Source: a virus
Taxonomy: Duplodnaviria > Heunggongvirae > Uroviricota > Caudoviricetes
Direction: 5' to 3' (one strand)
IMG/VR virus record: IMGVR_UViG_2663763286_000009
Coordinates: 1 to 6,746 of that record
DNA length: 6,746 bases
The first letter of the stretch is position 1; every line of letters starts with the position of its first letter. Both the position numbers and the translations under genes were made by a program. Shown here piece after piece: positions 2,368 through 3,618 of the stretch. The notes beneath the pieces were generated by a model, which was given only the letters and a program-made list of their open reading frames with translations, did not search any database and was not told the origin of the DNA.

Positions 2368-2790
2368 TCAATGCACTACGACAGAATCGCCGGGCGACCC
2401 ACCACCGCTGAAATGTGCTTTCCGGTAAACGGCCTGGACTGCATCATCATGCGCATCAATTGCCGTACTCAACGCTTCCTGCGCCGCCAGTAATGCACGG
2501 CGTTCCAGGGTATCGAAGATGCAGAGTCGGTGACGCAGCTCGCGCGGAAGAATTGCCAGAACCGCAGGGATCAGTTTCTGAATTTTTTCCCTTTGCGCTT
2601 TCGTTTCACCTTTTAACCAACGGTGATAGATGTTCTGCTGATTATTCCAGTCCTTGCCTGGTACCAGGGGCAATTCGCCGCCTCCCTGGCGCAGATATTC
2701 TTCAGTAATTGCACTGGCTACCCATGCCTGCCCTTTTTCAGCTGCCAGGGCTAACAGCACTGATTCGATGTGCTCATGCCTGATTTTCAT
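2368..2790 (-). CDS. ydaT: YdaT-family protein (reported toxic partner of the RacR/YdaS/YdaT module)
   Basis: 140-aa ORF; ATG 2790 with GGAG 7 nt upstream; start overlaps the 3' end of the upstream HTH gene by 17 nt. Position and length match Rac ydaT. Symbol by synteny and length. Confidence 0.8.
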   Translation of the reverse strand: MKIRHEHIESVLLALAAEKGQAWVASAITEEYLRQGGGELPLVPGKDWNNQQNIYHRWLKGETKAQREKIQKLIPAVLAILPRELRHRLCIFDTLERRALLAAQEALSTAIDAHDDAVQAVYRKAHFSGGGSPGDSVVVH

Positions 2791-3049
2791 GAATCAACTC
2801 CTGTGTATTTTGTGTGTTAGCCTTACATCCAACAGGTAAACCGTCGGTTGGATTCGGGTAGATATCAGGCCGGAGTTCATGAGGTGTAACCTCGAAATTC
2901 GTTACTTCAGCAACACGTAATGCTTTTTCAGGGCTGAATCTTTCATAGCCCCCCAGCACTCGACTTACATGCACCTGAGATAAACCCGTTAGCTTCCCAA
3001 ACTGTAGCTGGGTGATATGTTTCTCTTTTAAATAGTCTCTTAAGTTCAT
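2774..3049 (-). CDS. ydaS: Cro/CI-type helix-turn-helix protein, YdaS-like
   Basis: HTH segment ITQLQFGKLTGLSQVHVSRVL. ATG at 3049 with AGAAGG Shine-Dalgarno about 6 nt upstream is preferred over the track's TTG start at 3055, which has no usable spacing. First gene of the minus-strand operon, divergent from the repressor. Symbol by synteny. Confidence 0.8.
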   Translation of the reverse strand: MNLRDYLKEKHITQLQFGKLTGLSQVHVSRVLGGYERFSPEKALRVAEVTNFEVTPHELRPDIYPNPTDGLPVGCKANTQNTQELIHENQA

Positions 3050-3077
3050 AGCCAACCTTCTACGTTATGCCTCGAGC

Positions 3078-3108
3078 AAATATTAGCCCTACTAATTTTA
3101 AAGATCAA
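3078..3108 (-). promoter_or_regulatory. Sigma70-type promoter for the ydaS-ydaT-ydaU-ydaV operon, with an overlapping operator-like element
   Basis: Read on the minus strand: -35 TTGATC (3108-3103), 17-nt spacer, -10 TAATAT (3085-3080). A 23-bp imperfect palindrome (3078-3100: AAATATTAG cccta CTAATTTTA on the plus strand) covers the spacer and -10. Confidence 0.45.
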
Positions 3109-3120
3109 TAGTCAGACTAT
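3108..3120. promoter_or_regulatory. Perfect 13-bp palindrome ATAGTCaGACTAT between the divergent promoters; candidate operator
   Basis: 6-bp arms ATAGTC/GACTAT around a single central base. Abuts the -35 of the ydaS promoter and lies in the spacer of the putative racR promoter. Confidence 0.4.
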
Positions 3121-3123
3121 CTT

Positions 3124-3132
3124 TGATAATAT
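3124..3132 (+). promoter_or_regulatory. Putative extended -10 element (TGaTAATAT) of the repressor gene promoter
   Basis: TG at 3124-3125 followed by TAATAT at 3127-3132 (alternative GATAAT 3125-3130). Poor -35, as expected for a PRM-like autoregulated promoter. Short leader without a Shine-Dalgarno. Confidence 0.3.
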
Positions 3133-3156
3133 TGGTAAAACAAATAAACTCTATGT

Positions 3157-3618
3157 ATGAAAAAAACACGCGAAGTGATTGCAACTCCAGAAGCGAGCAA
3201 GAATTTAAAAGCCGCATGGAATGCAAGAAAAAAAGAGCTGAAGCTGACTCAAGAGTTGGCGGCTGAGTTGTTGGGATTCGAATCTCAAGGCACCGTTAGC
3301 CAGTATCTGAACGGCAAGATACCGGTAAATACCGACGCTGCGCTAAAATTTGCGGCTCTGTTAAAGGTAAAACCAGAGGACATTCGAGAAGACCTTAAAG
3401 ACTTAATGAATTATGTAAGATCATCAGATACTTATGATGATAGCTTTTCAGGCAAAGGATGGAGGCTGGTCAATGAAGAACAGGCAGAGTTACTTAACCT
3501 CTTCGAGATTCTACCTGCGTCAGAAAAAGCCAAACTCCTTAACCAGCTACGTGGACTAAACAAGCTCTACGAGGAAGCCTTCGAGAACATGCTGGCACTA
3601 AAGAAACGTAACCAGTAG
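3157..3618 (+). CDS. racR: Prophage repressor-like XRE-family HTH protein without an S24 peptidase domain, RacR-like
   Basis: 153-aa ORF; N-terminal HTH (LTQELAAELLGFESQGTVSQYL); C-terminus helical with no Ser/Lys peptidase motif. In-frame stop immediately upstream of ATG 3157 and no clear Shine-Dalgarno. Divergent from the ydaS operon, followed by an intrinsic terminator. Symbol by synteny. Confidence 0.75.
   Translation: MKKTREVIATPEASKNLKAAWNARKKELKLTQELAAELLGFESQGTVSQYLNGKIPVNTDAALKFAALLKVKPEDIREDLKDLMNYVRSSDTYDDSFSGKGWRLVNEEQAELLNLFEILPASEKAKLLNQLRGLNKLYEEAFENMLALKKRNQ

Follow-up and report, generated by a model that had tools for sequence, protein, structure and literature searches.

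The 6,746-nt window, the whole stretch of viral DNA that was analysed, carries at positions 2368 to 3618 what is very probably (we would say about 85%) the immunity switch (deciding between lysis and lysogeny) of a lambdoid prophage of the Rac family, with the construction of the cI-cro-cII region of phage lambda; the switch is of a known lambdoid kind, and its immunity type is new. In this model, a 153-amino-acid repressor would bind a three-part operator located between two back-to-back promoters. From this operator, it would shut off a rightward PR-like promoter that serves the Cro-like YdaS, the CII-like YdaT and the O/P-like replication genes, and probably also a leftward PL-like promoter that drives kilR and recE. 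The repressor would be made from its own PRM-like promoter, on a transcript predicted to start at the AUG and presumably subject to autoregulation. The YdaT relatives of K-12 and of prophage CP-933P boost reverse transcription towards the repressor gene, and by analogy the YdaT protein here would do so by binding TTGATT-N6-AATCAG at its own start codon. Because the repressor has no LexA-type protease domain, RecA-stimulated self-cleavage cannot inactivate it. If loss of the repressor is lethal, this would reflect the ordinary derepression of early genes (YdaT, YdaS, KilR and replication) rather than any dedicated toxin-antitoxin function.

A divergent arrangement of repressor, Cro-like and YdaT genes had been proposed in a sequence-only reading, and the open reading frames are indeed where that reading placed them. 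The HTH repressor gene (3157..3618, + strand) is divergent from ydaS-ydaT, which lie on the - strand. The YdaS-family gene, encoding a Cro-like HTH protein, spans 2774..3049 (91 aa) from the ATG used in RefSeq, or 2774..3055 when the farthest start, a TTG, is taken; the ydaT-like gene, identified by its ORF call and by Pfam, spans 2368..2790 (140 aa). The two genes share positions 2774-2790, exactly the 17-nt overlap that had been claimed. Downstream in the PR operon and on the same strand are an O-like replication initiator (1502..2290; PHROG 2509, replication initiation) and the DnaC/IstB-like helicase loader ydaV (755..1495; Pfam IstB_IS21). These replication genes (755..2290) are syntenic with those of K-12 and O157 Rac, and both gene order and gene families fit a lambdoid early region. 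On the other side, the repressor gene is followed by an intrinsic terminator (3648..3677, + strand), a CCGAC-loop-GTCGG hairpin between A and T runs with a dG of -17.3 kcal/mol (z = -5.2; 0/200 shuffles fold equally well). An Rfam scan gave no family at gathering score.

Sequence comparison identifies the repressor as a DicA/PaaR-type protein bearing a lambda-CI-like DNA-binding domain. The N-terminal HTH domain (about residues 10-78) is homologous to that of lambda CI (29-32% identity, rmsd 1.4-2.5 A; phmmer E 2.6e-4 to 1e-3 against 3kz3/1lmb), and the top ten Foldseek matches to the repressor model were all the lambda CI N-terminal domain (TM 0.74-0.83). E33 and E37, both acidic, take the places of lambda E34 and D38 in the alignment; the acidic patch of lambda CI contacts sigma-70. 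The C-terminal domain (about residues 104-153) is of the DicA/PaaR helical type, matching the ELLxLFxxLPxSE... module of DicA at 38% identity over 42 aa (hhalign probability 95%), and the repressor also matches the PaaR-type repressor of locus L016, from O157 strain 2571 (hhalign probability 91%). The C-terminal domain is predicted to be all-helical in a low-confidence model (pLDDT 45-59); the weak fold matches to Stl, HigA and DdrO were therefore not relied upon, and the whole-model fold search was informative for the N-terminal domain only. A search of 1.84 billion representatives with residues 80-153 alone returned just four matches and was too insensitive for family mapping, and the DicA/PaaR link accordingly comes from pairwise and profile comparison. 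In an NCBIfam scan, DicA (NF007257) was the sole match, at 35.1 bits against a cutoff of 101, which places the repressor as a distant relative outside the DicA subfamily. Its XRE-type HTH, its homologous C-terminal helical module, a length within 130-160 aa and the lack of S24 are all DicA/PaaR-type traits.

The lack of an S24 peptidase had been claimed earlier and is confirmed by Pfam, which finds HTH_3/HTH_31 only and gives no match to Peptidase_S24 (PF00717) in the repressor. Distant relatives that share the N-terminal domain do have Peptidase_S24, and in the alignment the repressor shows a gap at the position of their GDSM-P motif. The repressor shares with the LexA/lambda-CI self-cleaving class the lambda-CI-like DNA-binding domain but lacks the S24 features (Ser/Lys dyad and Ala-Gly cleavage site), and unlike lambda CI it has no S24 C-terminal domain on which RecA-mediated cleavage could act. 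The name RacR, which the sequence-only reading had applied, must be given up. K-12 RacR (b1356) compares with the repressor at a BLASTP E=26 and a profile-comparison (hhalign) probability of 1%, and the RacR operator, (T/A)TAGGC-N3-GCCTA(T/A), has no match across the whole window with up to two mismatches allowed. What the two proteins have in common is that their genes diverge from ydaS-ydaT in prophages of the Rac family, making the repressor a positional analogue only.

The repressor mRNA is probably leaderless, to judge from promoter geometry. A PRM-like, sigma-70-like promoter, TTGATA (3123-3128) and TAAACT (3145-3150) with a 16-nt spacer, lies at 3123..3150 on the + strand, and its -10 hexamer ends 6 nt upstream of the repressor ATG at 3157. 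This placement predicts a start at or adjacent to the A of the ATG, and hence a leaderless transcript. As had been noted earlier, the gene lacks a Shine-Dalgarno sequence; the strongest anti-SD pairing it offers comes to +1.6 kcal/mol, compared to -4.1 to -10.7 in the other ten genes of the window. A -10-like TAnnnT ends 6-7 nt 5' of the ATG in 13/13 related loci, whose 60 nt of upstream sequence show mostly 18-53% identity. Experiments have demonstrated leaderless mRNAs for racR, dicA and paaR2 (PMC9638921, PMC4681348, PMC8630535), so that the suggestion of near-leaderless, PRM-like expression is now backed both by geometry kept in 13 loci and by precedent. The in-frame stop that was said to stand directly before the ATG does need correction, since the nearest one is the TAA at 3145-3147, three codons (9 nt) upstream. 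That TAA is part of the -10 hexamer.

The PR-like promoter of the ydaS-ydaT-replication genes is found at 3080..3108 on the - strand, as TTGATC (3108..3103) and TAATAT (3085..3080) with a 17-nt spacer. It scores an 8/12 match, the TTGAyn-17-TAATAT arrangement is readable at every related locus, and TAATAT is also used by K-12 PydaST (PMC11879457). Three candidate operators can be proposed between and within the two promoters. Candidate a (OR1-like; 3081..3097; TATTAGCC-C-TACTAATT) is centred at -68 from the ATG, within the PR-like spacer; candidate b (OR2-like; 3106..3122; CAATAGTC-A-GACTATCT) is centred at -43, between both -35 hexamers; and candidate c (OR3-like and weaker; 3130..3146; TATTGGTA-A-AACAAATA) is centred at -19, within the PRM-like spacer. 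Dyad symmetry is weak (5-6 of 8), and counts of TATTAG and ATTAG-N5-CTAAT are not above chance window-wide, so that the proposal rests on position and recurrence across loci. Diverged relatives again show dyads centred near -68, -43 and -19; most of these relatives have one at -42 to -45, with none found there at L004/L005. Five intergenic positions vary among the window, E. albertii and Rac-SA53, with three in the central spacer of a, one in b and one outside both. The lambda operators OR1, OR2 and OR3 are found at roughly -66, -42 and -19 relative to the PRM start.

A putative PL-like promoter, TTGACT-17-TAATAT (3775..3803, + strand), would head the operon that includes kilR (4632..4853), and a TATTAG half-site on the - strand (3797-3802) overlaps its -10. 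The resemblance of this promoter to the PR-like promoter can be read directly off the sequence. Two hypothetical PRE-like promoters on the + strand, at 2784-2811 (overlapping the YdaT box described below) and 2994-3021, match at 8/12 only and are not conserved in L016.

It is conceivable, if rather unlikely, that the repressor is a natural hybrid, in which a lambda-CI-type N-terminal domain, with its acidic patch and a lambda-like layout of three operators, was joined to a DicA/PaaR-type C-terminal domain that replaces the protease. If so, the switch would be cooperative and self-activating in the style of lambda, would use a different oligomerisation module, and would be flipped through the C-terminal domain by a non-SOS signal or an antirepressor.

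The view of YdaS as a Cro-like member of its family stands as to family and HTH, but its likeness to K-12 YdaS is limited to 32% identity over 50 aa. The Pfam score for YdaS_toxin (PF15943) is borderline (30.8 bits against a cutoff of 30) and HTH_3 is also matched; in addition, RefSeq names the product of 2774..3049 'YdaS family', PHROG 35 is matched at 2e-26, the Cro structures 8c7k/8co2 are matched in the PDB, and the gene, preceded by the Shine-Dalgarno sequence AGAAGG, is the first of the rightward operon facing the repressor. YdaT is matched far above cutoff by YdaT_toxin (PF06254; 43.3 bits against 21), by PDB entries 3c4r and 8bt1, and by PHROG 163 (CII-like activator); it is 94% identical in amino acids to K-12 YdaT and keeps the YHRW motif with the DNA-binding residues H56/R57. 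Its cognate box, TTGATT-CATGAA-AATCAG (2780..2797, reading on the - strand), spans the ydaT start codon in the ydaS/ydaT overlap, and differs by one mismatch from the TTGATT-N6-AATCAA sequence footprinted in K-12 (PMC11879457) and CP-933P (PMC9986795). The box is kept in 79/83 related loci and the 17-nt overlap in 78/83. A second YdaT-like box at 2354-2371 was rejected as not significant. [quoted passage not shown] Furthermore, K-12 YdaS did not repress racR (PMC9638921), which makes the Cro analogy imperfect within the family.

Homology to K-12 DNA extends slightly upstream of the ydaT start codon and no further. Among the three regulators only YdaT is truly K-12-like, and by its sequence it is the K-12 allele; the repressor and ydaS are a separate immunity cassette. 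This cassette occurs in 180/5426 E. coli genomes (about 3% of the complete ones) and, at 96.8% identity, in phage Rac-SA53, where the repressor is annotated as dicA. O157:H7 strain 2571 has an identical cassette, carried at ttcA by a Rac prophage that also contains int, xis, recET and kilR. Across 80 viral contigs, repressor and ydaS co-vary (>=99% with >=90%; 70% with 68%), and ydaT is either of the K-12 or of the CP-933P type. An immunity pair that co-varies, next to freely swapped ydaT alleles, is the behavior of a CI/Cro/CII switch.

Several known systems resemble this one in part. The PaaR2-YdaS-YdaT region of CP-933P has the same architecture, including a 17-nt ydaS/ydaT overlap with the TTGATT-N6-AATCAA box, and there YdaS takes the role of Cro and YdaT that of CII (PMC8630535, PMC9986795); PaaR2 is leaderless, has no peptidase motif and is unresponsive to mitomycin C (PMC8630535). 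CP-933P differs in having a paaA-parE toxin-antitoxin pair after the repressor, where the window has the terminator, and no copy of the PaaR2 repeat GTTTAGTAA occurs in the repressor-ydaS intergenic region. At the PaaR-type locus L016, YdaS is 49% identical with a near-identical C-terminal 33 aa, whereas the repressors share only about 25% identity and YdaT 31%. An equation of L016 with CP-933P/PaaR2 was rejected: its repressor begins MMSALE rather than MQKKE, marking it as a paralogue, and its YdaT also differs from the published one. DicA of the K-12 Qin prophage is likewise short, protease-free and divergent from a Cro-like gene, with a leaderless mRNA (PMC4681348), and Qin dicC overlaps the YdaT-related ydfX by the same 17 nt; however, the N-terminal domain of the repressor here is closer to lambda CI, DicC has no similarity to the present YdaS, and YdfX is truncated relative to the full-length YdaT. 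K-12 Rac belongs to the same prophage family, with the same integration context (ttcA in relatives), the same three gene positions and flanking ydaU/ydaV-like replication genes and kilR. Its racR is leaderless and essential, but RacR is unrelated in sequence, and K-12 ydaS and ydaT lie 22 nt apart rather than overlapping. Lambda itself has a leaderless repressor mRNA, and shares the divergent back-to-back promoters and a CII-type activator site at the cro/cII junction.

The sequence-only reading had cast the locus as a repressor-toxin module, in which YdaS and YdaT would be dedicated toxins silenced by the repressor, so that neither repressor nor prophage could be lost. Pfam still labels both families 'toxin', in K-12 the deletion of racR is possible only when ydaS-ydaT are taken out as well, and overexpression of these genes slows growth (PMC5700373; PMC5700377). 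Moreover, K-12 YdaT causes filamentation and death through activation of rcsA (PMC11879457), and the YdaT protein here, so similar to it, keeps H56/R57. In the literature, YdaS and YdaT are regarded as equivalents of Cro and CII that become toxic on ectopic or derepressed expression (PMC5917428, PMC8630535, PMC9986795, PMC11879457). The YdaT of CP-933P showed no toxic effect and acts with YdaS as a transcription factor of a bistable switch, and a bona fide TA system has been argued against (PMC8630535); Jobling's letter makes the same case against toxins from genetic context. At the present locus, ydaS and ydaT occupy the cro and cII positions exactly, upstream of replication genes, and the repressor and ydaS evolve jointly, as partners that share an operator, with ydaT being interchangeable. 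The repressor gene, which diverges from ydaS-ydaT and has its own terminator, does not fit the single autoregulated operon of a type II toxin-antitoxin system, and the repressor is not RacR. The whole Rac prophage, finally, can be removed from K-12, which is not how an addiction system for the element would behave. Addiction is thus not the best reading, and we regard it as quite improbable.

Two other explanations accept a lambda-like cassette and differ on whether or how it works. The DUF1627 gene and recE are cut short by the ends of IS3-family elements, at 1-161 and 6625-6746, and none of the complete E. coli genomes of the collection shares these junctions. With the prophage cut on both sides, the switch may have no viable phage left to control. 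The cassette could then be an inert relic, intact in sequence and dead in function, its features being inherited leftovers. Against this, the three regulator genes are all intact, as are both promoters, the YdaT box and the terminator, a full-length Rac prophage matches positions 2300-3700 at 100% identity, and K-12 Rac is itself defective although its switch is active and its repressor essential; a dead switch therefore seems very unlikely. A different possibility is that SOS induction proceeds indirectly, through a LexA-controlled antirepressor that inactivates the short repressor, as in the Gifsy prophages and with Tum of coliphage 186. Full-size prophages of 45-55 kb, presumably inducible, carry the S24-less repressor, some relatives have a Rha-family gene in the PL operon, and Foldseek gives a weak similarity to the Stl repressors of SaPIs, whose activity is abolished when a protein binds them. 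However, the Stl similarity comes from the low-confidence part of the model, a scan found no credible LexA box near any promoter of the window, no antirepressor gene is present within it, and the PaaR2 switch was reported not to respond to mitomycin C (PMC8630535). An indirect SOS route is accordingly a distinctly doubtful prospect.

Reading the region as a lambdoid immunity switch is chiefly of value as a correction and for the context it gives. Under the label 'RacR', the operator, essentiality and cross-talk data of K-12 would be mistakenly applied to an unrelated protein, and 'toxin' is a name that databases have inherited for regulators of the Cro and CII type. The locus also provides a clean comparative example, in which repressor and Cro form a co-evolving pair and the CII analogue and its box a shared, exchangeable module. 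One carrier of this immunity type, Rac-SA53, is an LT-II-associated phage. An immunity type that is heteroimmune to K-12 Rac, without SOS self-cleavage and probably leaderless helps in forecasting the maintenance and induction of the prophages that carry it.

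The region at 2368-3618 is best read, with a probability of roughly 0.85, as a lambda-type immunity switch of the DicA/PaaR-YdaS-YdaT class, with a specificity new to that class. It lies in the early region of a Rac-family lambdoid prophage, which fills the 6746-bp window with an insertion-sequence (IS) end on either side. The minus strand carries an IS-interrupted DUF1627 (ydaW-like) gene (729..166), a DnaC/IstB-like loader (755..1495), an O-like replication initiator (1502..2290), ydaT (2368..2790; Pfam YdaT_toxin) and a YdaS-family HTH gene (2774..3049; Pfam YdaS_toxin plus HTH_3), from which the 153-aa repressor (3157..3618, plus strand; Pfam HTH_3 only) diverges. 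To the right of the repressor follow, in order, a terminator, a variable segment, kilR, ydaE, a racC-like gene and a partial recE (only the initial ~383 codons). In E. coli O157:H7 strain 2571, a Rac prophage beside ttcA that encodes int, xis, recET and kilR has a stretch 100% identical to positions 2300-3700; the Rac-SA53 phage matches at 96.8%, and its annotation names the three genes dicA, dicC and ydaT. Positions 1-161 and 6625-6746 are the ends of two IS3-family elements, with transposase C-termini on the plus strand (ending in HIPPAEAEKAYYASIGNNDLAA and a stop) and on the minus strand, and these ends cut short the DUF1627 gene and recE. The IS junctions are absent from 5426 complete E. 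coli genomes, where the best matches cover only 162-6624; at a guess, the prophage may therefore come from an IS-rich relative such as Shigella.

The sequence-only reading had named the repressor RacR, an identity that is ruled out by a BLASTP E value of 26 against K-12 RacR, an hhalign probability of 1% for a nine-homologue repressor profile against the same protein, and the absence of the footprinted RacR operator motif from the window. The lambda cI N-terminal domain aligns to repressor residues 12-78 (phmmer E 2.6e-4), and the best PDB matches of an AlphaFold model are all to that domain (TM 0.74-0.83, 29-32% identity). The acidic helix-2 residues E33/E37 line up with lambda E34/D38, the patch in contact with sigma-70. 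The last 50 residues share homology with the C-terminus of the Qin repressor DicA (38% over 42 aa; hhalign 95% over 117 columns for the two proteins), and likewise with a PaaR-type repressor encoded at the head of an O157 relB/parE operon (hhalign 91%); the sole NCBIfam match is DicA, far under the DicA cutoff. The repressor had also been called non-cleavable, and this is supported, because the Peptidase_S24 region of its more distant relatives is missing and its C-terminal domain is predicted to be helical. Those relatives (P0024-P0030; 234-259 aa) share 43-64% identity with its N-terminal domain and have an identical recognition-helix stretch, QGTVSQYLNGKIP. Such comparisons suggest that the C-terminal module has been swapped between cleavable and non-cleavable repressors.

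Expression of the repressor is probably leaderless, as had been proposed. It is the sole gene among eleven in the window without anti-Shine-Dalgarno pairing (+1.6 kcal/mol, versus -4.1 to -10.7 for the others). An in-frame stop does precede the ATG, three codons upstream rather than directly before it; this TAA (3145-3147) belongs to the -10 hexamer of a PRM-like promoter found by promoter scan, TTGATA (3123-3128)-16-TAAACT (3145-3150), which stops 6 nt short of the ATG. All 13 loci compared, from Escherichia, Salmonella, Raoultella, Shimwellia, Citrobacter, Rouxiella, Pseudescherichia and Yersinia, have a TAnnnT hexamer that stops 6 or 7 nt short of the repressor ATG. Identity among their upstream 60 nt is mostly just 18-53%; when these sequences are shuffled, TAnnnT falls there 5-16% of the time per lineage. 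Leaderless mRNA is a property already known for this repressor class: the strongest racR promoter yields a leaderless transcript (PMC9638921), the small set of leaderless mRNAs in E. coli includes dicA, racR and ymfK (PMC4681348), and 5' RACE together with N-terminal sequencing showed the same for paaR2 (PMC8630535).

Back to back with the PRM-like promoter is a putative PR-like promoter for ydaS (TTGATC-17-TAATAT, 3108..3080, minus strand), whose layout can be read as TTGAyn-17-TAATAT in every relative. Three candidate operator dyads are centred at 3089, within the PR-like spacer, at 3114, between the two -35 hexamers, and at 3138, within the PRM-like spacer. Counted from the repressor ATG these centres fall at -68, -43 and -19, mirroring lambda OR1, OR2 and OR3, whose positions relative to the PRM start are roughly -66, -42 and -19. 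Among diverged relatives, a dyad is present at -66 to -69 in every one examined, at -42 to -45 in most (absent in loci L004 and L005) and, again in most, at roughly -16 to -22. Of the five intergenic positions that differ among three near-identical cassettes, three are central to the first dyad; the second dyad holds one, and the fifth falls outside both. These features hint at a three-operator lambda-like layout, with weak within-window statistics. Upstream of the repressor in 52%-identical relatives from Raoultella, Shimwellia and Citrobacter, the candidate operators hold TATCAC half-sites (e.g. GTATCACGAATAC), which resemble the lambda operator half-site.

A strong terminator 3' of the repressor gene is followed by a putative PL-like promoter (TTGACT-17-TAATAT, 3775-3803), similar to the PR-like one and containing a TATTAG half-site. 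No credible LexA box near the promoters and no antirepressor gene was found in the window. Downstream, 3812-3860 is invariant in four related prophages, with ~30 bp (3835-3867) also common to K-12; its hairpins (ACAGCACGGCGCTGT then a U-run; CGCC-ACCC-GGCG) could form an attenuator or nut-like site before the first PL gene. Segment 3868-4238, found in neither K-12 Rac nor the strain 2571 Rac prophage, occupies the position of K-12 sieB and may hold a moron or exclusion gene: a 76-aa CxxC...CxxC protein of the NCBIfam ECs_2282 family (3961..4191, minus strand; 81.6 bits, cutoff 37) overlaps a 116-aa ORF with a good Shine-Dalgarno sequence (3880..4230, plus strand). Just upstream of kilR are plus-strand Rfam matches below threshold to DicF (4397-4451; 37.6 bits, gathering score 48) and STnc100 (4440-4639; 37.7 bits, gathering score 47). 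Identity with K-12 Rac is 99% over this region, and the DicF-like part is chiefly the terminator hairpin, with a different 5' targeting region.

Open reading frames and Pfam families bear out the gene coordinates, the divergent repressor and the 17-nt ydaS/ydaT overlap (2774-2790), which contains a YdaT box, TTGATTCATGAAAATCAG (2780-2797). Of 83 related loci, 79 carry this box variant and 78 the overlap. The PaaR-type O157 locus also has a 17-nt overlap, as does dicC/ydfX of K-12 Qin (2347-2851 of that locus); since YdfX (96 aa) is moreover related to YdaT but truncated (E 9e-7), Qin carries a decayed copy of the cro/cII junction. The YdaT operator at this junction is TTGATT-N6-AATCAA (PMC9986795), and the K-12 footprint, ATGATTCATGAAAATCAA, lies across the ydaT start codon (PMC11879457). 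A weaker YdaT-box-like inverted repeat at the ydaT 3' end (ACGATTAATTTCAATCAA, 2354-2371) has two mismatches and is within chance; the YdaT tetramer is able to hold two duplexes (PMC9986795).

The locus had been viewed as holding the prophage by addiction. K-12 racR can be deleted only once ydaST is removed (PMC5700373), YdaT of the window and that of K-12 share 94% identity, and K-12 YdaT is toxic via rcsA (PMC11879457), so that addiction may arise as a side effect. The evidence nevertheless speaks more for the ordinary toxicity of prophage early genes than for a dedicated toxin system. YdaS and YdaT are now taken as Cro and CII equivalents, as argued from genetic context in Jobling's letter. 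In CP-933P, a cryptic O157:H7 prophage, PaaR2, YdaS and YdaT form a bistable switch in which YdaT activates a PRE-like promoter and is non-toxic (PMC8630535), and K-12 YdaT activates a reverse promoter, raising racR expression (PMC11879457). The sequence-only reading is thus partly confirmed in its observations and partly supported in its interpretation, less the RacR label, the stop position and the dedicated toxin.

DNA homology with K-12 Rac spans ydaT (93%), ends just upstream of its start codon and returns only ~220 bp past the repressor gene, and the two YdaS proteins share just 32% identity over 50 residues; because the repressor is also not RacR, repressor, intergenic region and ydaS form a distinct immunity cassette. 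The repressor-ydaS cassette occurs in 180 of 5426 complete E. coli genomes (coverage at least 80%) and the full query, including K-12-type ydaT, in 40; ydaT of either type is found in thousands of genomes, with up to seven copies in one. Across 80 viral contigs, repressor and ydaS co-vary (at least 99% with at least 90%, about 70% with about 68%), and the ydaT beside them is of the K-12 or the CP-933P type. This is how an operator-sharing CI/Cro pair would behave beside a generic CII module.
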